Source of the DNA: Chitinophagales bacterium
GTDB taxonomy: Bacteria; Bacteroidota; Bacteroidia; Chitinophagales; Chitinophagaceae
DNA length: 51,880 nt
NCBI GenBank assembly: GCA_044448365.1
Contig: JBIOGV010000001.1
Location: forward strand, 1 to 51,880
Direction of reading: 5' to 3'
Shown here: positions 17,583-37,492 of the stretch, one piece after another
Position numbering within the stretch: position 1 is the stretch's first letter
How the letters are laid out: each line of letters opens with the position of its first letter
Position numbers and translations under genes: made by a program
Notes under the pieces: model-generated
Told to the model about the DNA's origin: nothing
Seen by the model: the letters and a program-made list of their open reading frames with translations, nothing else
The model's database searches: none

Positions 17583-17772
17583 TTGTTACTAATTTCGCCA
17601 GAACCCTTATTAATAGCGGGTCGGTAAATTCTGTATCGGAAAATGATTTAATGATGAGTACCAGAGTGATTTTATCATGTGGGAGAGATTCATGAATAAA
17701 GCGACGAGTCCCTTTTAGCATTTTTAAGACCATTGCCTCATGCAGTTAGGAGGAGACTCGTCGGGGAAGAAA
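17583..17772 (+). repeat. L-core-B repeat (core at 17629-17639, reads TTC TGT ATC GGA AAA TGA)
   Basis: Aligns with 18572-18763 and 24008-24194. Its 3' end lies 3 nt from the stop of the convergent gene at 17776. Confidence 0.85.
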
Positions 17773-17775
17773 TCC

Positions 17776-18345
17776 TTATTTTTTCATCGGAGGCGGCGGT
17801 GGTGGCGCCGTCAGTTTTTGCTCAAATTCACTCCAGGACCTGACCTTATTATTTTTGATCTGAAAGTAAGCATGCCCACGGACTGAATCTACTTTGCCTT
17901 TCATGTCAGTTTCATATTCACGGTACCAAACCAGAACAAAATCCTCTTTTGCATCATTGGCATGCACGGGCATCCATCCGTCAAACGTTAACTTCACAGA
18001 TGCTAATGTTTTCCTGAACTGCTTGGCAAAGTTTATCATGCTGTCTGCGGTGTTGTCTCTGAATTTATTGCCGTCAGGAAAATCAATGCTTACTGAATCG
18101 GCCAACAGGGATTTAAAATCATCCACCTTACCATCTTCCCACATTTTGTATAGATCCAGCACCATTTTGGCGTGGTTGGCTTCACCCATGCTGAAATCAG
18201 AAGAATAGGCAGCCTTGTATGGATAGGTTATCGACGCAGATTCTTTTTTCTCTTCCGTTTTGCCGGAGGTTTCATCGGTCTTTTTGTCGTTATTGCAGGC
18301 AAACAAGACTGAAGCTGCAAACAATGCAATTGATAATCGTTTCAT
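17776..18345 (-). CDS. NTF2/SnoaL-like lipoprotein with C-terminal poly-Pro tail
   Basis: Lipobox LFAC. The size and pattern fit a SnoaL-like fold (weak call). The protein ends PPPPPPMKK. Confidence 0.55.
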   Translation of the reverse strand: MKRLSIALFAASVLFACNNDKKTDETSGKTEEKKESASITYPYKAAYSSDFSMGEANHAKMVLDLYKMWEDGKVDDFKSLLADSVSIDFPDGNKFRDNTADSMINFAKQFRKTLASVKLTFDGWMPVHANDAKEDFVLVWYREYETDMKGKVDSVRGHAYFQIKNNKVRSWSEFEQKLTAPPPPPPMKK

Positions 18346-18571
18346 GTTTAAAAAATGTTTTAGTTAAGAAATATGTGTGATCGAAAATAGAATCTGGATT
18401 AAAAGAAATGTTTTCAATTAGAAATTTCAGGGTAGTAAGAGCGACTAAAGTAAGAAAGATTATCCATTCCCCGTTGTGATTAGTGTTCTATAAAATAAAA
18501 ATGATCGAATGCTGTCAGGACACTGTATCGTCTGTGGCTACGGATCAATCCCCATATTATTTTTGACAGTA

Positions 18572-18763
18572 ATCCTGCTATTAATTTCTCCAAAACACTG
18601 ATAAATACTCGATCAGTACATTCTGTATCGGAAAATGATTTAATGATGAACAACAGAGTGATTTTATCACGCGGGAGAGATGCATGAATAAAGCGAGGAG
18701 CCTCTCTTAGTTTTCTTGATATCACTTTTAACGCAGTTAGGAGGAGACCCGTCGTGGAAGAAA
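18572..18763 (+). repeat. L-core-B repeat (core at 18621-18631)
   Basis: Aligns with 17583-17772. Its 3' end is flush with the stop codon of the convergent kinase gene (18764-18766). Confidence 0.85.
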
Positions 18764-21700
18764 TTATACTGATACCGGCAAATGAACCACAAACTCAGTA
18801 AATTCTTCTTCCCGGGTGTTTACCTTTATTTCTCCGCCATGTGCTTTTACAATATCATAGCTCAGGCTCAAACCCAATCCTGTTCCTTGTCCTGTTGGTT
18901 TGGTAGTGAAAAAGGGTTGGAAGATTTTATCCAATACTTTTTGAGGAATGCCGGGTCCATTATCTCTGACACTTATTAAAACTTTATCAGCAACTTTCTT
19001 TGTGCTTACCAAAACTGTAGGTTCATATCCTGAAATATTTTGTTTATGCTTTTCGTTCACGGCATAAAATGCATTGTTGAATAAATTTATAAAGACACGG
19101 ACGATTTCCTGTTGCATAAGCGGGAACTTATTAATGCTTTCATCAAAATCCGTTTTAAGATTAGCCTGGAAAGATTTGTCTTTTGCACGAAGACCGTGGT
19201 AACTTAATCTTAAGCATTCGTCTGCAATTGCATTGATATTCACAAGTTCTTTCTGACCGGTGCCTGACCGTGAATGTTGCAGCATTCCTTTTACAATCGC
19301 ATCGGCACGTTTGCCGTGATGATTTATTTTTTCTTCATTATCTATTACGTCATTTACAATAGCATCCACTACATTCATGTTTCCCTTCTTAATTTCATCT
19401 TTCATTTCAACCAATAATTCTTTATTCACTTCTGAAAAATTATTGACAAAGTTTAACGGGTTTTGTATCTCATGCGCAATGCCTGCAGTGAGTTCTCCGA
19501 GAGATGCCATTTTTTCGGATTGAATAAGTTGGGATTGTGTGGACTTTAAATCTTCAAAAGATTGTTTCAACTCAGCCGTTCTTTCGTCAACAATTTTTCC
19601 CAGTTTTTCTTTTTCATTTCTTAGATTTTTTTCCCTCCATTTACTGAAAACCCGCAATGCAAATAAAAAAAGCAAGACATAAACCAGGTAGGCCCACCAT
19701 GTGCGATACCAGGGTGGCAAGACAACAAAACTATATTTAATGGGATCGCTCCAAACGCCCGATGGGCTTAGCGCTCTTACATCAAACTGATATGTGCCTT
19801 CATAAATATTTCCAAACGCAGCAGAGGTAATGTTGGCCGGGGTACTCCAATTTTTGTCGTAACCTTCCATTTTGTATTGGTATTGTACGAGCGAAGGCTT
19901 TGCAGGTTCAATGGCTGCAAATTCAATGGTTATATTATTGTGGCTGTAGGGTAATATCAAATTTTGAGGAACCGGGTAAAACCTGCTTATTGCGTCAAAT
20001 TCAATTCCCTTATACTTTGCCCGCATATCTTCGCGTTGTGCAACATTTAAGGGTTTGCCAAAAGTAGTTACCTCTTCTGTTACAGAAGCCGGTGTGACAG
20101 CGCTGTCAGATTTCAATTTTGATTTATAAGTATTGTTTTTAGTGTTCACTAAATCATTCCAGCAAATCGCCTCATTATCTACCTTTATGGCTAATATATT
20201 TAATTCGGGAGGAGTATTATTTTTATTTAACGATGTATAATCAAACCGCATCAAACCACTTTTTTCAGAGCCAGTTGCAATCCATAACATTCCTTTACTG
20301 TCTAAAAATATAGCATGTTGCCCCCTGTTTACATCCTTAACCGGGTAACCGGTTTTTGAATTATATTTTTCAAAAACAGGAGTATAATTTTGCAAATCCG
20401 CGTTACTTAAACTATTCTGTGGCGGATAGTTATTCTCATCAGCTTTATTGTTTGAATTATTTGTTGAGGTGGTTGTAACAGGCTTATACCCGGTGAGTAT
20501 GGCCACGCCGTTATTAGTTCCAATCACAATATTTCCTTCATGTGTTAATGCAACCTGGGTAACTACATTGTCAGGAAGCCCCTGCCCGGTTGTATAGGTC
20601 AAAACCGATTTGCCGTCATACCTGTTTAACCCGCCACCCTGGGTGCCCATCCAAATATTTCCATCATTATCCTTTATGAGCGACCTGATATAATTACCTC
20701 CTTCCGCATGGGATAAACGATAGTTGGTAAAAGACTTTCCATCAAAATGGCTAAGCCCGCGGTCAGTACCTATCCAAAAATCACCAGGTTTGTCTTCTGC
20801 AATTGCCGAAATGTAGTCACCTGCCAATCCCTGCTTTATAGTGTAGGTGGTAAAAGTTTTTCCATCGAATTTACTCAGCCCGTTCCGTGTTCCAATCCAA
20901 AGATTACCTTCACTGTCCTGCAAAATATTCTTTACTGAGTTATCGGGCAACCCATTCAAATCGGTATAAAAAGTAAAATATTTTCCGTCAAATTTTATCA
21001 ATCCATCATACTCGCAGCCCATCCAGATATTACCGGTTTTGTCCTGAAACAGCGACCAGAATGAAATGTTAAGTTTATAGTTGGTGAAGTATTCGCCATC
21101 AAATCTGGTCATTAATCCCCCGTACCCGGCGAACCAAAGATCTCCCTTTTTATCTTCAAAAATGCTCCTGATACGATTGTAGGTTAGTCTTTGAAATGAT
21201 GGCCCGGAATAGCTGAATATTCCGTTTGCTGCTGAGCTAAACCATAAATTTCCATCTTTATCTTCACAAATGCTGTGTATCTCGCCCATTATAACTCCAT
21301 TCGAATTATTTATATGGGAAAATGTCTTTCCATTATAATAAAGTATTTCCCCCCTTCCTGAGCTTAAACAAATGTTGCCAAAATGATCTTCATATACAAA
21401 AGGAACAATTTGCTCATCAGCAGGGTAGGTGATGATATCGGCACCATTATATTTAATGTAACCCATTTTGGTACCGGCCCAGGTATTTCCACTGTTATCT
21501 GTACAAATCGTATGAACCTCCTGATTGCTTAAAGCAATGTTAGTAAACGCTTTTCCGTCGTATTTACAAAGACCATTTTCTGTGCCGATCCATATTATCC
21601 CTTTTTTATCTTCCTTTATTTCGTATACATTATTTCCCGGAAGCCCATCTGATTTTGAATAGGTACTGATTGAGTCGCCTGCATATTTATAAAGACCATA

Positions 21701-22333
21701 ACCTTCTGTGCCAAACCAAAAGTTTCCGGCCTTATCTTCCAAGATGCTGTTTATCTTTTTTATAATTCGAAACCTTGAGACAGTAGCGCCGTCAAATATA
21801 TTTGCCCCGTTATCTGTACCAAACCATAAATTTCCTTTATTGTCTTCCGTAATGCTGTTGATACCATTACTGCTTAAGCCCTGCGAGGTTGTATAGTTAG
21901 TAAAGAATTGTCCATCGTACTTACTTACCCCGCCCGTGTAAGTACCAAACCACAGGTTGCCTTTTTTATCAGCATAGGAACATGAAATTGCGTCTAAGAC
22001 AAGACCCTGTTCAGTTGTGTAATTTTGCATGATCGATGAAAATTCGGCCTTCACTTTTTCAATAGGGCTAAAATGGATCGTTTCGGATCGCGATTGGTAA
22101 GGAATTGTATAGTCAACAGGCTTGTGCGGGATTGAAATTCTTTCCGGCACCGGTGTATTCTCAACAAGAATCGTTTTTGGTTGCAGACTATCGGGTAAGT
22201 TAGCCAGTAGTGTTACTTGAGGACTTACAGAACTATATTGTTTGGATTCGTTGACAACAGTTTTATTTTCCTTTTTATCGTTACAGGAAAAGAGGATTAG
22301 TACAGCAAGGAAAAGGATTTTAGAATTTGGCAT
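18764..22333 (-). CDS. Sensor histidine kinase with Reg_prop beta-propeller repeats, Y_Y_Y, TM, HisKA-like and HATPase_c domains (no receiver)
   Basis: Lipoprotein-like signal (LFSC). Many GNLWFGT...YDG repeats, YQYKMEGYDKNWS, the H-box GIAHEIQNPLNFV and GTGLGLSLSYDIV. Confidence 0.85.
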   Translation of the reverse strand: MPNSKILFLAVLILFSCNDKKENKTVVNESKQYSSVSPQVTLLANLPDSLQPKTILVENTPVPERISIPHKPVDYTIPYQSRSETIHFSPIEKVKAEFSSIMQNYTTEQGLVLDAISCSYADKKGNLWFGTYTGGVSKYDGQFFTNYTTSQGLSSNGINSITEDNKGNLWFGTDNGANIFDGATVSRFRIIKKINSILEDKAGNFWFGTEGYGLYKYAGDSISTYSKSDGLPGNNVYEIKEDKKGIIWIGTENGLCKYDGKAFTNIALSNQEVHTICTDNSGNTWAGTKMGYIKYNGADIITYPADEQIVPFVYEDHFGNICLSSGRGEILYYNGKTFSHINNSNGVIMGEIHSICEDKDGNLWFSSAANGIFSYSGPSFQRLTYNRIRSIFEDKKGDLWFAGYGGLMTRFDGEYFTNYKLNISFWSLFQDKTGNIWMGCEYDGLIKFDGKYFTFYTDLNGLPDNSVKNILQDSEGNLWIGTRNGLSKFDGKTFTTYTIKQGLAGDYISAIAEDKPGDFWIGTDRGLSHFDGKSFTNYRLSHAEGGNYIRSLIKDNDGNIWMGTQGGGLNRYDGKSVLTYTTGQGLPDNVVTQVALTHEGNIVIGTNNGVAILTGYKPVTTTSTNNSNNKADENNYPPQNSLSNADLQNYTPVFEKYNSKTGYPVKDVNRGQHAIFLDSKGMLWIATGSEKSGLMRFDYTSLNKNNTPPELNILAIKVDNEAICWNDLVNTKNNTYKSKLKSDSAVTPASVTEEVTTFGKPLNVAQREDMRAKYKGIEFDAISRFYPVPQNLILPYSHNNITIEFAAIEPAKPSLVQYQYKMEGYDKNWSTPANITSAAFGNIYEGTYQFDVRALSPSGVWSDPIKYSFVVLPPWYRTWWAYLVYVLLFLFALRVFSKWREKNLRNEKEKLGKIVDERTAELKQSFEDLKSTQSQLIQSEKMASLGELTAGIAHEIQNPLNFVNNFSEVNKELLVEMKDEIKKGNMNVVDAIVNDVIDNEEKINHHGKRADAIVKGMLQHSRSGTGQKELVNINAIADECLRLSYHGLRAKDKSFQANLKTDFDESINKFPLMQQEIVRVFINLFNNAFYAVNEKHKQNISGYEPTVLVSTKKVADKVLISVRDNGPGIPQKVLDKIFQPFFTTKPTGQGTGLGLSLSYDIVKAHGGEIKVNTREEEFTEFVVHLPVSV

Positions 22334-22441
22334 GGGAAAACAATATAAGGTGTCTTAGCCCCTTAATATCTGGTCTAAGTTTGAAATTTAATTTAGGCAC
22401 TTTAATTTAGGATTATGTCAAGGCAAAGACGCAAGTTTTCT

Positions 22442-23698
22442 TCAAAATACTTCTCCAAGGTTACCAACAAACCCCCTCGAACCTTTTGTGCCAATGCCGT
22501 AATCGAGACATGCATTTGTTCCGGAAAATTTATTGAATTTAATTCGAAGCCCTATACCAACAGCCGGTGAGATCACCTCCAGTTTATTACTCCCCAATTC
22601 TGAAAGTGATTCTGCATTCCCGAATATTACTCCTCCTACAAGTCCATTCCTGGAAATCTTAAACCGGAGTTCTGCTTCGAGGTCAACCATTTTTTTCCCG
22701 ATGAACCTGCTTTGTTCATATCCTCTGCCTGTGTTATTATAAGTATCGGAACCGGTACCCGGAAGATCCAGATACGGCGGGTTTCCGCCCAGGATAAATT
22801 CGTTATAGGACCATAATGCCAACACGGTATGAAATGGCATTTTAAAATATTTTCGCAAGTCAATTATAACTGAATTCCAGTTTGCGTCAGATCCAAACAC
22901 GGTGGCTTTCTGACTGAATTCTAAATTGACATAAACACTCCTTCCTTCGGGATTAATAGAATTTTCTCTTGAATCATAAACCAGGTTCAATTCAAATCCT
23001 GACGATATAGAAGTTTTGCTGAATCCATATTTTTCAAAATCTGTAACCCGCCCGGGCTGAACATCTAATTCTTTGATGCCCCAATGATAATCCAGTTGAT
23101 AGCCGAAACCAAGGTATAAGTTCTTCCTGATGCTCTTTAATACAAGTTCATATAGCCGCAGATACTGATAATTCAAAATGTATTTATCATTCAAAGTGGT
23201 AAATCCGCCAAACCCATAGATATCCTGCGGGTAATTAAGATAACGCCAATCTCCTACAAGGTTAAATTTATTTCCGGGGGTCCAGATGGCAGATTGCAGG
23301 GGAAACAGGAATTGTTTTTTTTGAGTATACTTTATCGCCCCCACGATAGTGGAAGTATTGGTTTTTTCCTTTGCACTGGTCAGAAAAGCCACATTGCCGC
23401 CAATACCGGGAGAAAATCCGGTTGCTATTGTAAATTCAACTATTGGAGCCACCGAAAAACGCCAGTGAGTGTTTATATTTCCGGTACTATCCAGTCTTAC
23501 ATCCGGATTTTTATGAAATGCCTGGTAAAATAAGTCAATCAGATCTTTCTGATACTTGAAGCTTTGATCCTCCTTTGGGATTAAAGTATCTATCCCATTT
23601 CCCAGAAGTATGGAACTAACTTGTCCATTCAGGTTAAAATAACAGGCCATCATTATACTTATCCATAAACCATAGCTTCTAAATGGTTTCCCTTTCAT
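22442..23698 (-). CDS. Omp85/BamA-TamA-like outer membrane beta-barrel protein
   Basis: The internal ATG at 23698 gives a signal peptide. It has alternating beta-strand character and a C-terminal ...GNLGEVF with terminal Phe. Confidence 0.6.
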   Translation of the reverse strand: MKGKPFRSYGLWISIMMACYFNLNGQVSSILLGNGIDTLIPKEDQSFKYQKDLIDLFYQAFHKNPDVRLDSTGNINTHWRFSVAPIVEFTIATGFSPGIGGNVAFLTSAKEKTNTSTIVGAIKYTQKKQFLFPLQSAIWTPGNKFNLVGDWRYLNYPQDIYGFGGFTTLNDKYILNYQYLRLYELVLKSIRKNLYLGFGYQLDYHWGIKELDVQPGRVTDFEKYGFSKTSISSGFELNLVYDSRENSINPEGRSVYVNLEFSQKATVFGSDANWNSVIIDLRKYFKMPFHTVLALWSYNEFILGGNPPYLDLPGTGSDTYNNTGRGYEQSRFIGKKMVDLEAELRFKISRNGLVGGVIFGNAESLSELGSNKLEVISPAVGIGLRIKFNKFSGTNACLDYGIGTKGSRGFVGNLGEVF

Positions 23699-24007
23699 AT
23701 TTAAGAATTCATTGAGCAATCCAAACGCAATTTTAATTATTCCGGGTGTTAATTTAATACTCTCACGCCGTATCCATATTCTAAAACTAAGTGGTGAGGT
23801 GTTCATCTGAAAGCAATCTTCTGTAAAATCAAATACTGCTCCATTAGAATATCTTTAATTATAAACAGATTTGTAAAATCTGTTAAGATTTTATGACTGC
23901 AAGATATTTACCCGGCTAACAAATTAAATCACAAATTTTTTTTGTCTTTTGATATTAACGCTATCAATCACCCCTCATTCTTCGAATGTAGTCTTATCGT
24001 ACATTAG

Positions 24008-24194
24008 TTGGCCATTAATTTCTCTAAAATCCTGATAAATACCAGGGAAATACTTTTTGTACCGGGAAGTGAATTAATAATGAACAACAGAGTGATTGTA
24101 TCATATGGAGCTGTTTGAATAAAGCGATGAGCTTCTTTAGTTTTTCTAAGAAGACTTCTCATTCCGTTGGAGGAGACTCGTTGGAGAAGAAATA
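24008..24194 (+). repeat. L-core-B repeat, more diverged (core reads TTT TGT ACC GGG AAG TGA at 24055-24072)
   Basis: Aligns with 17583-17772 and 18572-18763. Confidence 0.8.
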
Positions 24195-24342
24195 GTAAAT
24201 AAAAGTTTGCGCCAGTCCCCAAAGCAAAAACAACGTAATCACACAACCTTTCTGATCCAAAAACATTATATACTTTTGTTCAGGTCCACTTAACTGGTGA
24301 CCTTTTATTCCTTTTTTTCCTCTTCACATAAATGTTAATTGC

Positions 24343-26412
24343 ATGAAACCTGGTATTGTCGTTTTACTTATTGTCATTTGTGGGTTTACTGTCGATGCAC
24401 AACAAAAATTTACCCCGCCCGCAACAAAATCCATCCCTGTTGTGGATACTTTACACGGAGTTTTAATTACCGATGATTACCGGTGGCTGGAAGATAAGAC
24501 TGACCCGAATGTGGTTGAATGGACAAAAACCCAGCACGATTATGGAATTGAATATCTGAATGCAACACAAAAAACCCATCCGGGTTTGCGGGAAGATATT
24601 GCGGCTTTTATTGACCTTGATTATGAAGGCCCGCTGCAGAAGGAAGGTAAAAGGGTATTTCAGACCATTAAGAAAAAAGGTGATAAACAAAATAAATTAT
24701 ACACGATTATTAATAGTAAAAAAATATTGATCTGGGATCCAGTGCAACTGGATACTTCAGGCAGCACTTCCACCAACAGTGTTGCTTACACTTATGATGG
24801 TGAACGTGCAGCAGTCAGTGTTCAAAAAAGCGGGGCTGAAATTTCCACCACTTATATTATTGATACAAGGACAGGAAAAATTCTTTACCCGCCTTTGAAA
24901 AACACTTTTGACTATCAATGGACAAAAGATCAGCAACATGCTTATTTTACTTTGCGCAGCCAGGATGATGTAAACAAACAATTGCCACTGAAAACGTACT
25001 GGTGGAGAATAGGTGACCCTGCTGATAAGGCGGTATTCACAGGCACAACAACAGATGCTAAAAACAGCTATTATATTTATGATAACCGTTACAGCGACGT
25101 AAGTTTTTCGGGTGAATCCGACTTTTATTCCAATAACTGTTACATGCGCAAAACAGGCACTCAGGATAAAGGTGAATTGATTTATGAAAGTAAAAAATCA
25201 AATGCTTATCCCGAAGCTATTGGTGACAAATTGTACATTTTTACGAATGATAATGCGCCTAATTACAAATTGATGGTGGCTGATGAAAATAATGCAGAGT
25301 ACAAAAACTGGAAAGTATTAATACCCGAGAGTGAAACAGTGATGCAGAGTGATGTGATAACCAAAAACAATATCATCATCCAGGATAAAAAAGATATTCA
25401 AAGCAGGTTGACATTATATGGCCTGGATGGAAAAAGAATAAATCAGATTGAATTACCCGAAACAGGAAATGTTTCAGGTATCAGGTACGACAGGGAGGAA
25501 GATTCTGTTTATATCACACTTAACACTTTCACTTCAACATCAAAAACGTTTGTGGCCTCTCCTTCCAATTTTAAATGGCGTTTGTATTATCAGCGCAATT
25601 TGCCTGTTGATATGAGCAATATTGCCGGGGAAATTAAATTTTATATATCCAAAGACAGCACAAGGGTCCCGGTATTTGTTGTTCATCGCAAAGACATGAA
25701 ACTTGATGATAATAACCCTGTTTTATTAACTGCTTACGGAGGTTTTAATATTGGTATCGAGCCGGATTATTTCGGGTTTTATGCACCTTTGATCAACCGG
25801 GGAGTAATTGTGGTGGAAGCAGGAATTCGCGGGGGAGATGAGTATGGGGAAAAATGGCACCAGGGCGGAATGTTAGCGAACAAACAAAATTGTTTTGATG
25901 ATTTCAATAGTTGCACTGAATGGCTTATCAGAGAAAAATATACCAACCCATCAAAGATAGTAGCTCTCGGGGGCAGCAATGGTGGGTTGTTGATGGGAGC
26001 CATTGCTACTCAAAGACCCGATTTATATAAAGCAATCGTTTGTGAAGTTCCTTTGCTCGATATGTTGCGGTATCAGAAATTTTTAATCGCACGTTACTGG
26101 ATCCCTGAATATGGTTCGTCGGAAAATGATGCAGATTTCCGGTGGTTGCTTCGTTATTCTCCGTATCAAAATATCAGGAAGGGAATAAACATGCCCACCA
26201 TGCTGGTAACTGCAGGGGCAAACGACAGTCGTGTTGACCCGATGAATGCAAAAAAATTTGTTGCAGCCGCACAGAATAATGAAGGACAAATAAATCCTGT
26301 TATTCTGCACATAGATTACAATAGCGGGCATGGAAGCGGACAAAGCACAAAGCAAATTATTGACAACTGGAATTTCATTTTTGAATTTATCACCAATCAA
26401 TTAGGAATATAA
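24343..26412 (+). CDS. Prolyl oligopeptidase (S9A family serine peptidase)
   Basis: N-terminal DDYRWLED motif, catalytic GGSNGGLL, C-terminal D and H region, and a signal peptide. Confidence 0.9.
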   Translation: MKPGIVVLLIVICGFTVDAQQKFTPPATKSIPVVDTLHGVLITDDYRWLEDKTDPNVVEWTKTQHDYGIEYLNATQKTHPGLREDIAAFIDLDYEGPLQKEGKRVFQTIKKKGDKQNKLYTIINSKKILIWDPVQLDTSGSTSTNSVAYTYDGERAAVSVQKSGAEISTTYIIDTRTGKILYPPLKNTFDYQWTKDQQHAYFTLRSQDDVNKQLPLKTYWWRIGDPADKAVFTGTTTDAKNSYYIYDNRYSDVSFSGESDFYSNNCYMRKTGTQDKGELIYESKKSNAYPEAIGDKLYIFTNDNAPNYKLMVADENNAEYKNWKVLIPESETVMQSDVITKNNIIIQDKKDIQSRLTLYGLDGKRINQIELPETGNVSGIRYDREEDSVYITLNTFTSTSKTFVASPSNFKWRLYYQRNLPVDMSNIAGEIKFYISKDSTRVPVFVVHRKDMKLDDNNPVLLTAYGGFNIGIEPDYFGFYAPLINRGVIVVEAGIRGGDEYGEKWHQGGMLANKQNCFDDFNSCTEWLIREKYTNPSKIVALGGSNGGLLMGAIATQRPDLYKAIVCEVPLLDMLRYQKFLIARYWIPEYGSSENDADFRWLLRYSPYQNIRKGINMPTMLVTAGANDSRVDPMNAKKFVAAAQNNEGQINPVILHIDYNSGHGSGQSTKQIIDNWNFIFEFITNQLGI

Positions 26413-26590
26413 CTGATCGCTAACACGCATTTTGTGTCGCAATATGCCAGTAGGATTTTAATGGTGCTTTCAAATTAATCTATGAATTGGTCAGCAGGAA
26501 CCTGTTTATGAGTTTGTGAATGGGATGTCTTCAAATTTTTCAATTGTTGACACAAGACGCATGGCCCGTCTATTTTTTATTGGATTTATA

Positions 26591-26782
26591 TTACTGGTAA
26601 ATTTTGACAGGAATAAAGTCATCTGGTTTTTTCACAATCTTGTTACTGAAAATCTCTGTATTAGCTTTTAGCTGCTGATGATTCCTTTTGTTCTCCCGGG
26701 TTTTGTCACCAGGATATAACCAGGATCCATGAAACTCTTCGTTTTTTAATTCCTGTAAAAATCCATTAACTTCATAGTGCAT
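26591..26782 (-). CDS. Hypothetical small protein
   Basis: An isolated 63-codon ORF divergent from 26832. No family recognised. Confidence 0.25.
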   Translation of the reverse strand: MHYEVNGFLQELKNEEFHGSWLYPGDKTRENKRNHQQLKANTEIFSNKIVKKPDDFIPVKIYQ

Positions 26783-26831
26783 TCTAAAACACTTCTTTAT
26801 TTTTTATTTCTTCACTTCTAAATTCAACGAT

Positions 26832-27212
26832 ATGAGAAAGAGTTTTATCAAACAAATTTCAGGCATTGCAGTTCTTGGAATTTTCTTATTGTCATTGGGA
26901 TCATTCATCAATAAAAATGACGGTACTAAAACCGTAACCGGGGAAATCCTGGATATGAAATGTTATATGGCTTCGGGCGCTCATGGTGCAGATCATAAAG
27001 AATGCGCTGCTACATGCATCAATGGCGGTTCTCCGATGGGCATCCTTTGTGATGATGGTAAAGTTTACCTGTTGATCAAAGACGATAAAAAAGAGGATGC
27101 TTATAATGATGCCAAAAAGTATGCAGGCGAAAACGTTATATTGACCGGCACTGAATCAGTAAAAGGCGGCGTACAGGCATTGATTGTAGCCGAAGTTAAA
27201 ATGAAAAAATAA
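26832..27212 (+). CDS. Hypothetical exported Cys-containing protein
   Basis: ATG start, signal/TM segment, 126 aa. No family recognised. Confidence 0.5.
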   Translation: MRKSFIKQISGIAVLGIFLLSLGSFINKNDGTKTVTGEILDMKCYMASGAHGADHKECAATCINGGSPMGILCDDGKVYLLIKDDKKEDAYNDAKKYAGENVILTGTESVKGGVQALIVAEVKMKK

Positions 27213-27312
27213 ATGCCTTCTTCGCGACGAATCTCCTTCGAATTTTTAGAAATTCTTTTTTAAGAAATTAAGAGGTAGCCGGGACCGGGAAAAATTAATA
27301 AGATCAACAATC

Positions 27313-28042: not shown

Positions 28043-28108
28043 TGATCGGTTCCTGCCTATTCATTTGCCGGGTCAATTGAGAGTATCATTAACTTTAAAA
28101 TATGTTTT

Positions 28109-28738
28109 ATGGATTATGAAATAGTAGTCCGTTTTTTACTTGCCGCTTTATGGGGTGGTATTGTTGGAGCAGAGCGGGAGTACCGGAGTAAGTCGGCCGG
28201 CTTCCGCACGATGATCATGATATCAATGGGATCTTGTCTTTTCACGATTCTGTCGGAATCAATCGGTGCACATGGTAATCCGGATCGTATTGCATCCAAC
28301 ATTGTTACAGGCATAGGCTTCTTAGGCGCTGGGGTAATATTCAGAGGGGAGAATCGTGTAAATGGTATAACTACTGCTGCAACGATCTGGGCTGTTGCGG
28401 CTGTTGGCATGGGAATCGGTTCAGGACTTTATTTTGGGTCGGCATGTGCCAGTGTACTGATCTTAATAGTGCTGTCTGTTTTACCTTTTTTGGAAAACCT
28501 GATTGATCAATTCAACCAATCAAAAGAATATACTATTGAATGTGATTTTTCCGGAGAGAAAAAAAATCATTATGAAAAACTGCTGAGACAGTTTAATTTA
28601 AGATTTAAACTGGTAAACCAGTCAAAAGTAGGAAATGATCTATCATTTACATGGCAAACCCAGGGTCATGCAAAAAATCACGAACAATTTATTACTGTCA
28701 TGATGGAAGAGGCCAGTGTAAAAAGGTTTGAATACTAA
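28109..28738 (+). CDS. mgtC: MgtC/SapB family membrane protein
   Basis: LLAALWGGIVGAEREYRSKSAGFRT...IVTGIGFLGAGVIF is the characteristic MgtC N-terminal domain. Confidence 0.85.
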   Translation: MDYEIVVRFLLAALWGGIVGAEREYRSKSAGFRTMIMISMGSCLFTILSESIGAHGNPDRIASNIVTGIGFLGAGVIFRGENRVNGITTAATIWAVAAVGMGIGSGLYFGSACASVLILIVLSVLPFLENLIDQFNQSKEYTIECDFSGEKKNHYEKLLRQFNLRFKLVNQSKVGNDLSFTWQTQGHAKNHEQFITVMMEEASVKRFEY

Positions 28739-28862
28739 ACATGAGGGATTTTTAGTTTCATGTACAATTTGTTTTTGCCATAGAAATCAACTGCGTAAAT
28801 ATTCTTCGTCTTGAAATTTTTTTTTGTTTCAGATAAAAGAATAGTTGGATTTCTTTAAGAAG

Positions 28863-29912
28863 CTACTGTTGAACTGCCCACGCAAGACCGTCAGGCCCTC
28901 CGCCAACATCAATGTGGTTGGTAACTTCTAAAGTTTTAAGATCTATAACAGCTACATAGTTATCAGCTGTACAGGCAACAAACACACGTAAACCATCGGG
29001 GTCCATGAGAATTCCTGCCGCACCATGACCAATTTTCAATCGTTTCACTTCCGTATGTGACTTTGCATCATAAATGGTCAGGTCGCCTGATTGAAGACTC
29101 GAGATGAATACTAGCTTGCCATCTGGCGTAAACTTCAGTCGGTTAGCACCAAAAACCTTTGCATCAATTTTTGTTGCTAATTTTTTCGCTCCAAGATCGA
29201 TGATGGAAATTGTTCCATCCTCACTTGATGCAGTCCATAATTCACTGCCGTCGGGTGACACATCAAATCCCTCCGAACCCCTGACAACGGGAACAACAGT
29301 TTGGGTCCAATCTTCGTGTGGCTTAGCATCACGGGGTGCAAATTTTCCGGGCGGGATCAGCGTATCAACAACAATGCTGACAGTTCCGGAAGAAACGTTT
29401 GTCGTGTAAATCTTTTTTCCGTCCGCAGAAACATAGATCATATGTGTTCTGTCCTGGCCTGTTCCCATGCTCCAGTCAAGTTTTCCGGTTACAGGATCAT
29501 AGCGACCAATGGATTTGGAACCTTCCGCAGTAAACCATGCCTTTCCGTTAACAAACGTCAAACCATGCGGACCAAACAACGGTCTTGTGTCAATGTTGAG
29601 TAAAGGCTTTTGCGCAACAAGGTCAATGACGTTTAGTTCGTGTAAACTGCCGCCACCATAAATAGAAACATAAGCCGTTCTCCCGTCTGAAGAGGCGATG
29701 ACTTCGTGTGGATCCTCGCCAACAGGAATGCGGGCGATAACATTTAATGTAACAGGATCTACGATCGCCAGCGTATGGTTGGTCTTTGAAAGTGCAAGCA
29801 ATGATTGCCTCGGCATGGATTGTGCTTTACATTCTGTTGCTGAGAAAATTAATGCCACCAGGAAAATATTGACAGCAATCAGCCGGAACTTATGGTATTT
29901 TAAATTCTTCAT
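28863..29912 (-). CDS. Secreted YVTN family beta-propeller repeat protein
   Basis: Signal peptide and a repeated blade pattern (DG..L.V/T....G.V.VID). Confidence 0.7.
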   Translation of the reverse strand: MKNLKYHKFRLIAVNIFLVALIFSATECKAQSMPRQSLLALSKTNHTLAIVDPVTLNVIARIPVGEDPHEVIASSDGRTAYVSIYGGGSLHELNVIDLVAQKPLLNIDTRPLFGPHGLTFVNGKAWFTAEGSKSIGRYDPVTGKLDWSMGTGQDRTHMIYVSADGKKIYTTNVSSGTVSIVVDTLIPPGKFAPRDAKPHEDWTQTVVPVVRGSEGFDVSPDGSELWTASSEDGTISIIDLGAKKLATKIDAKVFGANRLKFTPDGKLVFISSLQSGDLTIYDAKSHTEVKRLKIGHGAAGILMDPDGLRVFVACTADNYVAVIDLKTLEVTNHIDVGGGPDGLAWAVQQ

Positions 29913-30229
29913 AGCCTGAATATTTTATTGTAATGATACGCCTTCTTATCGGCAATTTCTGTTTGACCACGCAAACCTATTTCATGCAAAAAAACAAATT
30001 TTTAAAATGCGATAAACCGGCAAAAATTTGCGATGAACTCCACTAACTTAAGACTGGATTCTTCTTCTTTTGAAATTACCGGGCTAATTTTTACGTAATG
30101 ACGTCTAAAGAAACTCCACGCAGAGCAGAGATAGTACATTGTTTGAAAATCGTAACTATCTCTTTGAACTTCGTTACAGTGAGTTTACAAAGTGAAGTTC
30201 TTTTGCATATTAAAATCATAGTTATACCA

Positions 30230-30997
30230 ATGCAAAAGACCACTGTTTTACTCGCCTTGTTCCTCTTAATGTTAGGTAAATCTTCTTTTTCGCAAAAGAC
30301 AGATAGCACAAAAACCACCAGTCATTTTTCCGGATCAATAGGTATTACCGATAATGGCATTTCTTTGATACCTACTTTCTCACTGAACAAACCGGCTATC
30401 GTCTTTGATTTGTCAATCGGTAAAAAGAAACTCAGTTTTGAACCGGAATTCAGTTTCAGTTATGACAGCAAACCCTGGAATTTTCTTTTCTGGTGGCGGT
30501 ATAAACTCGTGCACACCAAAAAATTTTTCATGAATTTGGGTGCCCATCCTGCCTTTGCCTTTCAAACTATTCCCGTTATTTCCAATGGCGTGTCAAAAAA
30601 TGTTCTGGTACCTCAGCGATACTTCGCACTCGAACTTACTCCCAATTATTTCCCCGGTAAAAATGTTAGCGTGGGAATTTACTACCTGTATTCCCGCGGG
30701 CTGGATAATAATTCAATTAATATCACTCATTTTCTCACATTGAACAGCACTGTTTCGGGAATACCATTGGGCAACCAGTTATCCTTTAGGTTTACTCCGC
30801 AATTCTACTATTTAAAGCTGGATACACAGGATGGTTTTTATTTTACCTCATCATTTACTGTTGATAAGAAAGAATTTCCGCTTTCGGTTTCAGCGATCAT
30901 CAACAAAACAATTAAGACAGATATCGTGGGAAGCAAAAACTTTGTTTGGAATGTAAGCGTGATTTACTCCTTCAATCAAACTTATGTCAAACACTAG
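30230..30997 (+). CDS. Hypothetical outer-membrane beta-barrel-like protein
   Basis: The internal ATG at 30230 gives the signal peptide MQKTTVLLALFLLMLGKSSFSQ. Alternating hydrophobic pattern. Confidence 0.5.
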   Translation: MQKTTVLLALFLLMLGKSSFSQKTDSTKTTSHFSGSIGITDNGISLIPTFSLNKPAIVFDLSIGKKKLSFEPEFSFSYDSKPWNFLFWWRYKLVHTKKFFMNLGAHPAFAFQTIPVISNGVSKNVLVPQRYFALELTPNYFPGKNVSVGIYYLYSRGLDNNSINITHFLTLNSTVSGIPLGNQLSFRFTPQFYYLKLDTQDGFYFTSSFTVDKKEFPLSVSAIINKTIKTDIVGSKNFVWNVSVIYSFNQTYVKH

Positions 30998-31028
30998 GAA
31001 TCGCCGGGAAATAGTAAGTTTGTGGAAC

Positions 31029-31925
31029 ATGCGTAACGTGGAAACCATAGAAGAATTTTACAAAAGAAAATTCGAAGGGGTGCCCGAGAATATCCGAAGT
31101 GAAATTGGACATTTCAATGTGTTCAGGCTGGATCCTTTTGTCGGGAGTAATGCTAAGCCGGTTCCTTACAGCAGGAGAGATTATTTTAAGATCATGCTGG
31201 TGATAGGTAATTACAGGATGCACTATGCTGATGAAGTCATCGAAATACGAAGACAGGCATTGGCATTTTCAAATCCGCAGATACCGTATAGCTGTGAATA
31301 TACTGACAGGATTCAAAGCGGTTTTTTTTGCGTGTTCACCCCGGCTTTTTTTCATCAATACGGAAACTTAAATCAATATACCGTTTTTCAACCGGGCGGA
31401 ACACATGTATTTGAGCTGACAGATGAACAGGTGAGCAAGGTAACCGGTATTTATAAAAGCATGTTTGAAGAAATTGATTCTGATTACATGCATAAATACG
31501 ATGTGTTACGCACTCTTGTTTTTGAATTGTTGCATTTCGCAATGAAATTGCCGTCTGCAAAATTTGATAAGCAGCCGATGAATGCATCCCAAAGAATTTC
31601 CACACTTTTTTTTGAATTATTAGAACGCCAGTTCCCGATTGATGACAATCACCAAACATTAGGCCTTCGTTCCGCATCGGACTTCGCAAAACAGTTAAAT
31701 GTTCATGTGAACCATTTGAACAGGGCAGTAAAAGAGACCACGGAGAAAACAACATCGCAAATTATTGCCGAACGCATTTTACGGGAATCAAAAATCCTGT
31801 TGAAGCATAGTGCGTGGAATGTATCTGAAATTGCCTATGCACTGGGCTTTACTGAAACAACTCATTTCAACAACTTCTTTAAAAAGCATATCCAGTTAAG
31901 TCCGCTTAAATTCCGTAATGTTTGA
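31029..31925 (+). CDS. AraC family transcriptional regulator
   Basis: C-terminal HTH_18 pattern (...SEIAYALGFTETTHFNNFFKKH...). The ATG at 31029 avoids overlap with the upstream gene. Confidence 0.85.
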   Translation: MRNVETIEEFYKRKFEGVPENIRSEIGHFNVFRLDPFVGSNAKPVPYSRRDYFKIMLVIGNYRMHYADEVIEIRRQALAFSNPQIPYSCEYTDRIQSGFFCVFTPAFFHQYGNLNQYTVFQPGGTHVFELTDEQVSKVTGIYKSMFEEIDSDYMHKYDVLRTLVFELLHFAMKLPSAKFDKQPMNASQRISTLFFELLERQFPIDDNHQTLGLRSASDFAKQLNVHVNHLNRAVKETTEKTTSQIIAERILRESKILLKHSAWNVSEIAYALGFTETTHFNNFFKKHIQLSPLKFRNV

Positions 31926-31992
31926 ATTTCGTAATTAGTTATTTCGTTTTTGTTATTTCCTGACCTGCCTTCTATTTAGCTTTGTTCCATAA

Positions 31993-33006
<1,014 letters not shown>

Positions 33007-33030
33007 TTGTTCGGACGAATGAACTAAATA

Positions 33031-33609
33031 ATGAAAAATGTAATCATCCTCGGTGCCAGTGGTAATATTGCAACGCATGTTATTGATATTTTAGTAAAAA
33101 AAGATGACATCAACCTGACCTTGTTTTTGCGAAACAAAAATAGGCTAAGAAATAAGGATGTTTCAAGGTGTCATATCATTGAAGGGGATGTTTTAAATAT
33201 CAGTCAACTAAAAGAAGCAATAAAAGGACAGGATATAGTGTATGCAAATCTTTCAGGTGACCTGGAGGCGATGGCAAAAAACATTGTGAGAGCAATGAGA
33301 GAAACAGGAGTTAAGAAACTCATCTTCATCAGCTCGATAGGTATCTACGACGTTCCTTTAAGACCCGTTTTAAAAACTTATCGAAAAGCTGCAGATGTAA
33401 TTGAAGCATCCAACCTCGAATACACTATCCTGAGACCAACCTGGTTTACGAATGCGGATGAAGTGGATTATGAGACAACCAGGAAAGGCGAAGCGGAAAA
33501 AGGATCGGTAATTTCTCAGAAAAGCCTCGCAACTTTGATTACGAAAACTATTGAATCTCCTGAAAAATACTTTCGTGAAAATCTCGGGATTAACAAACCA
33601 AACTCTTAA
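33031..33609 (+). CDS. NAD(P)H-binding (NmrA/atypical SDR-like) oxidoreductase
   Basis: N-terminal IILGASGNIA Rossmann motif, ~190 aa. Confidence 0.75.
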   Translation: MKNVIILGASGNIATHVIDILVKKDDINLTLFLRNKNRLRNKDVSRCHIIEGDVLNISQLKEAIKGQDIVYANLSGDLEAMAKNIVRAMRETGVKKLIFISSIGIYDVPLRPVLKTYRKAADVIEASNLEYTILRPTWFTNADEVDYETTRKGEAEKGSVISQKSLATLITKTIESPEKYFRENLGINKPNS

Positions 33610-33614
33610 TAGTT

Positions 33615-34025
33615 ATGAATACTTCAGAAAATCAATACCAGGTTTTTGAAAAAGGTGAAAAAGCTCCGGCTGATTATTTCACCGGCGCAGCATGGGTAAA
33701 AATGCTGGTGCCCAATGATCCTATTCTCAATTGCCAAATAGCGAATGTTGTATTTGAACCCGCTGCAAGGAACAACTGGCATACCCATCCGGGCGGACAA
33801 ATTTTATTGGTAACAGATGGCATTGGGTATTACCAGGAAAAAGGTAAGCCGATACAGTTACTTCATAAAGGTGATGTAGTTAAAATTTCTCCTGGTGTAG
33901 TACATTGGCATGGCGCTTCACCTGGTGGCGAGTTTACTCACATCGCAATTAATACGAACACGCAATCAGGATTAGTGGTATGGTTACAAAGAGTGACAGG
34001 CGAAGAATACAGCAGCTTTAAATAA
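33615..34025 (+). CDS. Cupin domain protein
   Basis: NNWHTHPGGQILLVTDG...VHWHGA are cupin_2 His motifs. Confidence 0.8.
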   Translation: MNTSENQYQVFEKGEKAPADYFTGAAWVKMLVPNDPILNCQIANVVFEPAARNNWHTHPGGQILLVTDGIGYYQEKGKPIQLLHKGDVVKISPGVVHWHGASPGGEFTHIAINTNTQSGLVVWLQRVTGEEYSSFK

Positions 34026-34247
34026 AAGTTTACAAAAGCCTTTACTTCACTACCGGCACAGATCGCAGGCTTGCCTGGTTGTTATTCGCCCATGCGAATT
34101 TTAATAGAAGATCGGTTTCAGTTCGTTCATACATGAAATGATGATTGCACTATTTTTGAAACTCTCATTTTTAGCTGCCACATCATGCAGTATTTGCATT
34201 TCAGTTACCTGTAAATCATAAATATTTTGCTTTTAGTTGGGCGGATA

Positions 34248-34332
34248 TATGAATAAAGCGACAGATTTCTTTTAATTTTCTTAAAATGAATTTTAATACG
34301 GTCAGGAGGAGACTTCGTCGGCGAAGAAAAAG
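34248..34332 (+). repeat. B-module-only repeat (TGAATAAAGCGAC...GGAGGAGACTTCGTCGGCGAAGAAA)
   Basis: Aligns with the 3' halves of 17583-17772, 18572-18763 and 24008-24194. Confidence 0.7.
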
Positions 34333-34382
34333 TATTTGACTGCATTGTCATATTTTAGATGAATCTAATTTAATTGAGGCAT

Positions 34383-35834
34383 ATGAAAATAGTATTGATC
34401 TTAAAGATGCTGATGATGCTGGCAGTAGTATCCGATGCACAAACTAAAGTAGAATGGATTTCAACATCGCAGCAAGAGCCATGGAAAGTAGAAAAGAGTT
34501 TACAACCTTCCTTAGCAATCGTCAGTGCAGATGTGGAAGTACAATTTAACCGGCCAGGGCAAATAATTGAAGGCTTTGGGACGTGCTTCAATGAACTCGG
34601 ATGGACTTCGTTGAGTCTATTAAGCATAAAGGACAGGGAAAGTATAATGAAAGAATTATTTGCTCCCGGTGTTGGAGCAAACTTTACTATTTGTCGGATG
34701 CCTGTCGGAGCAAATGATTTTTCACGCAAATGGTATTCTTATGATGAAACCGATGGGGATTTTGAAATGAAGAATTTTAGCATTGCAAATGACCTGGAAA
34801 CGCTTATTCCATTTATAAAAAATGCTCAGAAATTTAATCCATCTCTGAAGCTTTGGGCCTCCCCCTGGTCTCCACCAGCCTGGATGAAATATAATAAACA
34901 TTATGCAGCCCGAAGCGTATTGGGGGATGTTAACTTTAAATCAGATGAATTTGGTATGGATCTCACCCGGATCAACAACGGTTTAGAGCCGGGTAAAGAA
35001 GGAAAAGAAGGTACAGATATGTTTATACAAAACGAAAAATATTACAAAGCGTATGCTGTATACTTTGAAAAATTTATACAGGCATACAGGCGGCAAAACA
35101 TAAAAATAAATACGGTGATGCCTCAGAATGAATTTAATTCAGCACAGGTATTTCCGAGTTGTACGTGGACAGCAGCAGGTCTCGCAAAGTTCATCAGTTA
35201 TTTAGGCCCCCGGATGCAGTCACTTGGTGTTAGTGTATTCTTTGGAACTGTTGAACGGGCAAACCCAAAGATGGTTGATACTATTTTAACAAGCCCTGAA
35301 AGCAGTAAATACATTAAAGGTGCAGGTTTTCAATGGGCAGGAAAAGGGGCTATTGCCGCTATTCACCAACAATACCCGGCACTTACACTATACCAAACCG
35401 AGCAGGAATGCGGCAATGGTAAAAATGATTGGAAATATTGTGTATATACCTGGAGTTTGATGGAGCATTATTTTAAAAATGGAGCGAATGCCTACATGTA
35501 TTGGAATACATCTTTAAAACAAGGCGGCATTAGTACATGGGGCTGGAAGCAAAATTCATTGGTTAGCGTTGACACAGTAAATAAAACTTATAAATACAAT
35601 TATGAGTATTATTTGATGAAACATGTAAGCCATTTTGTCAAGCCCGGGGCAAAAAGGCTGAATACAACCGGCTCGTTTGATAATTTGCTCGCATTTATTA
35701 ACCCGGATAAAAGCATTGTCATTGTAACTCAAAACAACGGCAATGAAGAAAAGAAGATAATCGTTAAGATCGGGAACAAAACAATCGCCCCGGTTTTGAA
35801 ACCAAATACATTTAATACATTTTTGATAAAGTAA
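34383..35834 (+). CDS. Glycoside hydrolase family 30 (glucosylceramidase-like)
   Basis: ATG at 34383 with a signal peptide. GFGTCFNE and ASPWSPPAWMK motifs are typical of GH30. Confidence 0.85.
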   Translation: MKIVLILKMLMMLAVVSDAQTKVEWISTSQQEPWKVEKSLQPSLAIVSADVEVQFNRPGQIIEGFGTCFNELGWTSLSLLSIKDRESIMKELFAPGVGANFTICRMPVGANDFSRKWYSYDETDGDFEMKNFSIANDLETLIPFIKNAQKFNPSLKLWASPWSPPAWMKYNKHYAARSVLGDVNFKSDEFGMDLTRINNGLEPGKEGKEGTDMFIQNEKYYKAYAVYFEKFIQAYRRQNIKINTVMPQNEFNSAQVFPSCTWTAAGLAKFISYLGPRMQSLGVSVFFGTVERANPKMVDTILTSPESSKYIKGAGFQWAGKGAIAAIHQQYPALTLYQTEQECGNGKNDWKYCVYTWSLMEHYFKNGANAYMYWNTSLKQGGISTWGWKQNSLVSVDTVNKTYKYNYEYYLMKHVSHFVKPGAKRLNTTGSFDNLLAFINPDKSIVIVTQNNGNEEKKIIVKIGNKTIAPVLKPNTFNTFLIK

Positions 35835-35898
35835 AAATAGATATCCGCGAGTAGTTTGTTATATATTCTGTCATATTTGTTTTTGCCACGAAACAGGG

Positions 35899-35990
35899 TT
35901 GAACAATGCTTTCCCGACGAATCCATTTTAGTTTTCCTAAAATAATGTTTCATGAGGTCAGAAGAAAACTCGTTGGTGAAGAAAAATATA
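35899..35990 (+). repeat. B-module-only repeat, diverged
   Basis: CCGACGAATCCATTTTAGTTTTCCTAAAA...GGTCAGAAGAAAACTCGTTGGTGAAGAAA aligns with the other B modules. Confidence 0.6.
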
Positions 35991-36160
35991 TCTCGCAATT
36001 ATAAGAACGACCTATCCTGATCATCCACAAAATAAATTTTATCTTTATTCGGCAGCCGTCTCCGGGACTGATCGATAGATGAATCCTGGTAGCTACCGGG
36101 ATCGGACACCGCAAGAACCGGACATAAGCAGCCATTTTAACTTTGTATTTATATAGCTCA

Positions 36161-36673
36161 ATGAAAATAGTTCCGGCGCAGGAAATAAAGCAATTAGAAA
36201 TTATTGAGAGACTTGCTTGGGAAATTATACCAGAATTCTATGCTCCTTATGTTCCCCTTGATCATTGTATTTTCTTTGTGGAGAAATTTCAAACAGTAAC
36301 AGCAATACAAAAACAAATAGTGGAAGGATTTGAATACTACTTACTAAATTACAAGGAAAACATTGCCGGCTACCTGGGGATTCACGCCACAAATGAAATC
36401 CTGCTGCTAAGCAAACTATATTTATTAAAGGAATTCCGGGGAAAAGGGATTGGCGACAAAGTAATGTCATTTGTATATAAACGTGCACATGAGTTAAAAT
36501 CTTCAACAATTGAACTCATTGTAAACAGGCAAAATAAAGGGGCAATAGACTTTTATGAAAAAAGAGGATTTACAATCGTTCAACCCATAGTCAGCAAATT
36601 TGAAAATGGTCATTCAACAGAAGAATTCAAAATGGAAAAGAACATCGATCGGGAAGTGCACAGTGGCAGCTGA
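36161..36673 (+). CDS. GNAT family N-acetyltransferase
   Basis: The RGKGIG...motif A region and size fit GNAT. The ATG at 36161 is preferred over the TTG at 36143. Confidence 0.8.
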   Translation: MKIVPAQEIKQLEIIERLAWEIIPEFYAPYVPLDHCIFFVEKFQTVTAIQKQIVEGFEYYLLNYKENIAGYLGIHATNEILLLSKLYLLKEFRGKGIGDKVMSFVYKRAHELKSSTIELIVNRQNKGAIDFYEKRGFTIVQPIVSKFENGHSTEEFKMEKNIDREVHSGS

Positions 36674-36744
36674 CATTGGATGTCGCTACCGGGTACGACT
36701 CAAAGCGTCGTTATTTATAAGAACAGAACCCTTTAAATAATAAT

Positions 36745-37359
36745 ATGGCAGAAACAAACCCCAACTCACGATTAGAAACTTTTTGCGATGGAGTATTTGC
36801 AATAGCATTAACCTTATTGATTATTGATATCAAAATCCCTGCATCAGTCAGTATCAATACCAATGCTGATTTCTGGCTTGCGCTTAGGCATATTGCTCCG
36901 CCTATATTTGCATTTGTTTTAAGTTTCGCTATCATCCTCATAACCTGGGTTAACCACCACAATGCATTGAAACTGGTGAATAAATCATCTGCCTCATTTA
37001 TCTATGCAAATGGTTTTTTGCTGCTTACTGTTGCTTTTTTGCCATTCCCGACCTCCTTGCTGGGGGAATTTCTTTTAACTGATCATGCCGCCCCCGCTGT
37101 AGTTCTTTATGAATCTACTATGGCATTTCAGGCAATCAGCTGGATTTTGATATCCAGAACAGCAGTTAAAAATCAGTTAGCTAAAAATGAAAAATCAAAC
37201 CTGGCAACTCGAGAAAACGGTAAATACGGATACTTTGCATTCGCTCTTTATTCTCTTTGTACCATCACGGCATTTTGGTTTCCTCTTACTATTGCCATTG
37301 TTACGACCTTAATCTGGATTTTTTGGCTGATATGGGGAATTAATCTTAAGCATGAATAA
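36745..37359 (+). CDS. TMEM175/DUF1211 family potassium channel-like membrane protein
   Basis: N-terminal RLETFCDGVFAIALTLLIID matches the RxxxFSD-type signature helix. Six TM-like segments. Confidence 0.8.
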   Translation: MAETNPNSRLETFCDGVFAIALTLLIIDIKIPASVSINTNADFWLALRHIAPPIFAFVLSFAIILITWVNHHNALKLVNKSSASFIYANGFLLLTVAFLPFPTSLLGEFLLTDHAAPAVVLYESTMAFQAISWILISRTAVKNQLAKNEKSNLATRENGKYGYFAFALYSLCTITAFWFPLTIAIVTTLIWIFWLIWGINLKHE

Positions 37360-37403
37360 ATGAATTGACCAAATTGAACTTTCTTTTCGAAACAAACAGG
37401 TTA

Positions 37404-37492
37404 CTGAAAATAGATGTTTTTCGCCGTCTGGTCCTCTTAGTTTTCTTAGATAATTTCTCATGCAGTCAAGAGGAAACTCGCCCTGGAAGAGT
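37404..37492 (+). repeat. B-module-only repeat, most diverged copy
   Basis: GGTCCTCTTAGTTTTCTTAGAT...CATGCAGTCAAGAGGAAACTCGCCCTGGAAGA aligns with the other B modules. Confidence 0.55.

Follow-up and report, generated by a model that had tools for sequence, protein, structure and literature searches.

An intergenic hairpin repeat of Chitinophagaceae as a probable REP-like DNA element linked to RAYT-type transposase genes

The 51,880-nucleotide stretch of DNA analysed here (the window) is the entire contig C1 of a metagenome-assembled genome (MAG) of a Bacteroidota bacterium (3.87 Mb in 443 contigs, 39% G+C, 88% complete), and it carries, inside a stretch of accessory genes between 17 and 37 kb, a recurrent intergenic hairpin element that we call B. 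The genes next to the window copies are unrelated to one another and code for sensor kinases, a SnoaL-like protein, an S9 peptidase and GH30, GNAT, TMEM175-like and PAS kinase proteins. Six copies had been described in a preceding reading of the nucleotide letters without database searches (the sequence-only reading), and an nhmmer profile built from them recovered all six at the same positions on the plus strand (E values of 1e-16 to 1e-22), where they were likewise found with a covariance model (CM; 58-97 bits). In the host genome outside the window the profile found one further good copy (contig C18) and one weak copy (C271); with a degenerate seventh copy in the window, 7 of the 9 genomic copies thus lie within 20 kb. 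We conclude that B is very probably a REP-like DNA element (REP, repetitive extragenic palindrome) associated with a clade of Bacteroidota RAYTs (REP-associated tyrosine transposases), and hence that it belongs to a known kind of element and is not a new regulatory RNA.

Alignment of 30 copies showed that the unit conserved across the family spans about 72 nucleotides and begins at the 5' arm of a 14-15-bp imperfect hairpin, CGACGAGTCCCTC(TT) / (T)GGAGGAGACTCGTCG, which contains one bulged A and encloses a loop of about 30 nucleotides. The stem is followed by an unpaired conserved tail, GGGAAGAAA, which is retained in 172 of the 180 copies examined. The 45-60 nucleotides upstream of the hairpin, including TGAATAAAG, occur only in the window, and 24 copies taken from other genomes showed no conservation on the 5' side of the stem; the first 45-60 nucleotides of the element as originally delimited (about 100-130 nucleotides) are therefore private to the window, although the conserved unit within it is real. 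Similarly, the block TGAATAAAGCGAnGAG, which had been assigned to all six copies, is exact in three and has three mismatches in a fourth, but is absent from the other two.

The probable cognate gene was located only by inspecting the spacers between B pairs about 680 nucleotides apart. At such loci in related Chitinophagaceae (L099, L051 and L075) two inverted B copies enclose an open reading frame (ORF) of about 190 codons; in L099, for example, a minus-strand B copy at 3640-3729 is followed by the gene at 3733-4308 and a plus-strand copy at 4318-4408, and in L084 and L088 the enclosed ORF is frameshifted. The hairpin with its GGGAAG tail thus directly flanks a RAYT-type gene, adjoining it on both sides in inverted orientation with the tails directed outward. 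The encoded protein matches the NCBIfam model NF047646, 'REP-associated tyrosine transposase' (E values of 1e-16 and 3e-21), its sole match in the PDB is E. coli TnpA-REP (4er8), and the MPNHxH (HUH) and Y(I/M)HxNP (tyrosine) motifs are invariant in the five members aligned. Judged by these signatures it is a RAYT relative (HUH/Y1) of a Bacteroidota clade. In two congeners, remnants of the gene also accompany B, namely a 62-residue C-terminal fragment lying exactly between two B copies (G006:C339) and an N-terminal fragment 14 nucleotides from a B copy (G003:C2:1168k). Furthermore, two related genes, one intact (G007:C7) and one with a single internal TGA (G003:C2:914.9k), are flanked by sister hairpins of the same build with other stems, which matches the co-evolution expected of a RAYT and its REP. 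The canonical Y1_Tnp genes of the genus were considered as sources of the cognate enzyme and rejected, as their four loci have short REPs of their own and no B. Among these genes, those of L036 (G000:C3:13721-17065), L035 and L037 are accompanied by short palindromes such as GCGTTCCGCAGGAACGC, AACGTTCCATTGGAACGTT and AGCCCCGTAGGGGCGAC, indicating that several unrelated REP families coexist in these genomes.

Quentin et al. 2018 (PMC6006769) describe subclass 2.6 of TnpA_Y1 as made up of genes from Bacteroidetes that have atypical secondary structures without GTAG on their flanks, with the motifs NH[LIV]H and YIH[QN]NP and a W motif WQ (their Table 1). The MPNH(L/V)H and Y(I/M)H(N/L/H)NP motifs of the B-flanked proteins correspond to the first two of these, and motifs, protein length and host all fit subclass 2.6, although by sequence the YIxNNP of subclass 2.4 would fit too. 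The REPtrons of subclass 2.6 (group 5 of Bertels) further resemble B in having a gene of about 180-190 codons in a Bacteroidota host, flanking hairpins without a GT[AG]G foot and hairpin copies elsewhere in the genome. The likeness is one of motif and description, and it does not extend to the W motif, where the B-flanked proteins have W followed by K, I or E (or F in place of W) as against the WQ given there. Taken together, we propose that B is the hairpin end, not itself autonomous, of a small IS200-like unit (a 'REPtron') encoding a RAYT of the HUH/Y1 type; internal decay of this unit leaves head-to-head hairpin dimers and singletons across intergenic DNA. By analogy with the TnpA of IS200/IS605 and E. 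coli TnpA-REP, the hairpin would form in single-stranded DNA and be bound by the transposase, with the unpaired conserved tail providing a sequence-specific foot or cleavage context, and B copies may spread or persist through this recognition. Any effect at the RNA level, such as that of a 3'-untranslated-region (UTR) hairpin behind the SnoaL-like gene, would then be a by-product.

B can also be compared with other described families. Like the classical REP/BIME and REPIN elements with their RAYTs in E. coli and Pseudomonas (Di Nocera et al. 2013, PMC3733652), B lies outside genes as an imperfect palindrome whose conserved tag is unpaired, forms dimers that are mainly head-to-head, occurs in clusters, and flanks its transposase gene in inverted orientation. 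It differs from them in its bulged 14-15-bp stem and loop of about 30 nucleotides (2-20 nucleotides in the classical elements), in bearing its tag as a 3' GGGAAG tail rather than a 5' GTAG, and in its 1-15 matches per genome as against hundreds of copies. CGTC-tagged REPs (PMC3733652) share with B the CGTC sequence, Bacteroidetes hosts and a majority of copies lacking an adjacent dedicated transposase; their tag is unpaired and their stems (8-9 bp) and loops (4-5 nucleotides) are short, whereas in B the CGTC lies within the stem and there is a transposase association. The TIRtrons with their TIRYT genes (PMC3733652) likewise have a Y1 gene bracketed by inverted repeats of about 75-90 nucleotides and moderately abundant solo copies, but a TIRtron arm is a plain inverted repeat, while each B arm is itself a REP-like hairpin.

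Several observations weigh against the assignment of B to the REPs. The number of copies per genome is low (at most 15 matches) and far under that of classical REP families, the loop is far longer than in canonical REPs, and there is no GT[AG]G foot, neither GTAG nor GTGG adjoining the stem. The NF047646 scores of the flanked protein (61 and 75.7 bits) fall under the 80-bit equivalog cut-off, and its match to Pfam Y1_Tnp is weak (18-22 bits with a cut-off of 23 bits). Moreover, no B-cognate RAYT was found in the 88%-complete MAG that holds the window, whose only member of the subclass (G000:C301:2698-3192) is 44% identical, has one internal TGA and is accompanied by different hairpins. Neither an empty site nor a target duplication was found, the sole orthologous comparison (genomes G003 and G008) having lost homology on the far side, so that we infer the mobility of B rather than observe it; a search for an empty site of the C18 copy matched its flanks to paralogues only. 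Finally, simple REP dispersal leaves the clustering unexplained, both that in the window and that in G003, where two clusters hold 6-7 copies each. As separate observations, the RAYT gene on C301 is flanked by hairpins of the type CCCGGGGTCT...AGACCCTGGG, which make up a sister REP family, and the B-rich region of G003 (G003:C2:905001-965000; L030-L032) contains at least two further families of short interspersed repeats (units of about 60-110 nucleotides, 4-6 copies each) and a 465-nucleotide tandem repeat at about 936.5-938.3 kb.

The hairpin of B is under structural constraint. In the 30 copies the 15-pair stem (with its one bulged A) is 87.5% paired and shows double changes at 9 of the 15 pairs, with 12 double-change cells as against 4.0±1.8 in shuffles (none of 500 shuffles reached 12), and 150 further copies gave 50 such cells as against 22.4±3.4; this excess over shuffles indicates that the hairpin has been maintained. 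The covariation for which the sequence-only reading had proposed to look in more copies is therefore present, but the claim that the arms change together within the window did not hold, since the changes there are one-sided C>T substitutions giving G·U pairs with no double compensatory changes. Compensatory changes in the hairpin, the asymmetric purine tail conserved in those 172 copies, an innermost pair that is often U·G and so pairs on a defined strand only, and the common strand of 6 of the 7 window copies would all suit a plus-strand structured non-coding RNA, be it a small RNA in its own right, a 5' leader or an antisense transcript that enters convergent genes. The strand test argues otherwise: with the two innermost pairs excluded, variable G·U cells (22+21 = 43 in the 30 and 150 copies) and A·C cells (24+15 = 39) are equally common, and the stem pairs equally well on both strands. 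The earlier argument that G-U pairs mark the plus strand as the RNA accordingly fails, the intact window copy folding just as well when read from the minus strand (z -4.3), a result which the sequence-only reading had itself held to speak against an RNA. Likewise, 5 of the 6 originally described window copies fold no better than shuffled sequences, and the count of copies on one strand is inflated, for three of them were duplicated as parts of one composite, which removes most of the bias and leaves about four plus-strand events to one minus-strand event. The bias was accordingly set aside as evidence, GC skew being weakly positive on the plus strand but the independent events too few. A pseudoknot between loop and tail (UUUCUU with AAGAAA) was also considered and rejected, the best complementary run averaging 5.94 as against 5.93±0.07 with the tails permuted, with no covariation, so that the match reflects composition only. 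A constraint of this kind on the stem would, by analogy, be expected if an HUH transposase recognised the hairpin in single-stranded DNA.

The distribution and arrangement of B bear on the same question. A covariance model of the six copies detected B in 6 of 9 other genomes of the genus and, under strict filters, in none of 31 genomes outside the genus. The distribution across the family is patchy, with B in 12 of the 150 Chitinophagaceae genera sampled and 1-15 matches per genome, and a scan of species-representative genomes with an exact pattern yielded 83 loci, all of them in Chitinophagaceae or unclassified Bacteroidota, including Ferruginibacter, Terrimonas and MAGs labelled 'Chitinophaga sp.'. 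The copies counted were 7 for the window, 30 for the genus and 146 (non-redundant) for other Chitinophagaceae loci, and those examined are all intergenic. In other genomes B lies on both strands as singletons, head-to-head dimers and tandem arrays, the last with a 70-nucleotide period, near-identical loops and partial units. Neighbouring pairs among the 146 copies are head-to-head in 30 cases, head-to-tail in 21 and tail-to-tail in 6, and a pattern dominated by head-to-head neighbours has been reported for REP families (PMC3733652). A CRISPR array was rejected as an explanation of the tandem copies, because their loops of about 30 nucleotides are near-identical between units and not unique spacers. 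The ORFs flanking B occur in all four relative orientations, and the neighbours outside the window, again unrelated to one another, include genes for a TonB receptor, pirin, lipoyl synthase, a ROK kinase, a beta-lactamase and a photolyase-related protein, some of them housekeeping genes. For an RNA, the placement of B in convergent, divergent and co-directional spacers alike, the existence of head-to-head dimers and of tandem arrays that include partial units, and the patchy spread over genera would all be unexpected, as would the lack of anything conserved upstream of the stem between genomes, which leaves no shared promoter visible. No Rfam family was matched either: the window gave nothing at the gathering thresholds, and a search of four loci at E<=1 gave a chance microRNA match only. 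We therefore regard a plus-strand RNA as highly improbable. The small RNA, leader and antisense terminator that had been offered earlier are each opposed by the lack of an Rfam match, of a constant gene context or orientation and of strand-specific pairing; the further suggestion of a guide or recognition RNA of a mobile element survives as to recognition, in view of the direct RAYT association, but not as to a guide RNA, the evidence pointing to a hairpin in single-stranded DNA.

Read as REP-like elements, the window copies are relics, one intact and six decayed. Copy 1 (17702..17772, plus strand; CM 96/86 bits) alone is intact, with a 9+5-bp hairpin, a 30-nucleotide loop and the tail GGGGAAGAAA; the positions first described for its stem CGACGAGTC/GACTCGTCG, 17702-17710 and 17755-17763, are exact, and it alone folds better than shuffled sequences (minimum free energy -26.3 kcal/mol and z -4.04 on the plus strand, -24.4 and z -4.27 on the minus strand), the z values of the other window copies ranging from -0.5 to +1.6 on either strand. 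Copy 2 (18694..18763, plus strand; CM 96/81 bits) has a decayed stem with four mismatches and z values of +1.0 on the plus and +0.2 on the minus strand, and copy 3 (24125..24193, plus strand; CM 86/69 bits; z -0.4 on both strands) has a stem preserved through G·U pairs and occupies the spacer between divergent genes, upstream of that for the S9 peptidase (24343). Copies 4 (34259..34330, plus strand; CM 89/74 bits; z +0.35), between the cupin and GH30 genes, and 5 (35915..35985, plus strand; CM 80/65 bits; z +0.9), between the GH30 and GNAT genes, are both decayed, the latter with G>A changes in its 3' arm. Copy 6 (37424..37492, plus strand; CM 77/58 bits; z +1.0), between the TMEM175-like and PAS kinase genes, has lost the outer stem and keeps the inner CCTCTT/AAGAGG pairing. 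The seventh copy (27213-27302, minus strand; CM R2 25.7 bits, E 5e-4; nhmmer E 0.025) retains the 3' arm GAAGGAGATTCGTCG and the tail CGAAGAAGG with a degenerate 5' arm. A tblastn search of the window found no RAYT remnants.

The placement described in the sequence-only reading also stands, three copies lying upstream of plus-strand genes and two lying 0-3 nucleotides from stops on the minus strand: copy 1 ends three nucleotides from the stop of the SnoaL-like ORF (17776-18345) and copy 2 abuts that (18764) of an ORF for a 1189-residue sensor kinase. Roles at the RNA level in 3' UTRs, termination and translation are documented for E. coli REPs, and single B copies could, compatibly with a REP origin, have been co-opted as 3'-UTR stabilisers, terminators or modulators of translation near stops. 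The start of copies 1 and 2 just past those stops, the proximity of several copies in other genomes to a stop (within 30 nucleotides) and the minus-strand hairpin of copy 1 (-24 kcal/mol) would agree with this, but on both strands the hairpin lacks a following U-run, the folding of copy 2 is lost and the position relative to stops is inconsistent across the family, so that we consider such co-option rather unlikely. An intrinsic terminator as the general identity of B was rejected on the loop of about 30 nucleotides and on the purine tail or mixed sequence, with no U-run, that follows the stem on both strands.

Part of the window pattern is attributable to a second repeat. A repeated 'A' module precedes the B copies at 17.6, 18.6 and 24.1 kb; it ends in TTCTGTATCGGAAAATGA (read as FCIGK*) and duplicates the 3' end of mnmE, the true mnmE gene ending at 369. 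A linker of about 50 nucleotides between this core and the hairpin (17640..17701 on the plus strand, with equivalents at 18632-18693 and 24073-24124) is common only to these three copies (repeat families D1, D7 and D11), and the copies have been multiplied passively within a composite of about 200 nucleotides, 'mnmE-core + linker + B', of an mnmE-linked island. The seventh copy lies six nucleotides from a further mnmE-core repeat at 27309. We also observed that the segment 24000-27354, with the S9 peptidase gene and a 126-codon ORF, has a direct mnmE-core repeat at either end; just within these repeats stand a plus-strand B copy on the left and the degenerate minus-strand copy on the right, an arrangement seen in no other segment. 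B might on such grounds be an attC-like site on which a site-specific recombinase acts and which delimits the gene cassettes of the island, and the concentration of 7 of the 9 genomic copies in the accessory stretch, the four copies beside a repeated mnmE core, five congeners that lack the GH30 cargo and a break in G003/G008 synteny within about 10 nucleotides of a G003 B copy would agree with it; attC sites are likewise imperfect hairpins with an extrahelical base. However, G003 has an mnmE-3' repeat array of its own on contig C6, of which the 16.9 kb examined contain no B, while its B copies lie on contig C2, far from mnmE and integrases, and this separation indicates that the mnmE attachment site itself does not include B. 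Elsewhere B stands beside housekeeping genes and in tandem arrays, both orientations are in use, conserved RYYYAAC/GTTRRRY cores are lacking, there is no integrase in the window or near the G003 clusters, and the direct association of B is with a Y1 transposase gene. We accordingly hold an attC-like role to be most unlikely. It is also very doubtful that RAYT-type hairpins fused to mnmE 3' ends serve as junction or processing sites by which island cassettes are assembled or shuffled, an idea that would explain the 7 of 9 copies at cassette borders and the two similar G003 clusters. In the G003 array (L034; G003:C6:400001-416860) mnmE-3'-end cores stand at about 9873, 10857, 14814 and 15687, downstream of mnmE and up to the contig end, and the response-regulator/Crp gene of the window has its G003 orthologue on another contig, 26 kb from the start. 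As the array runs to a contig end and this orthologue lies elsewhere, a variable island separating mnmE from the stress cluster seems to be characteristic of the genus.

For the mnmE island, the REP interpretation would make the B portion of the composite repeats a hitch-hiking REP rather than the attachment site proper. It also removes a false lead, in that a conserved and covarying intergenic hairpin in Chitinophagaceae need not be an RNA gene. In the literature, 'atypical' REP families of Bacteroidota RAYTs are mentioned only, and B would supply one such family with a concrete sequence and anatomy, a bulged stem of 14-15 bp, a loop of about 30 nucleotides and a GGGAAG tail. With it a series of decay becomes visible, which leads from a transposase gene with two hairpins through the head-to-head dimer to the singleton.

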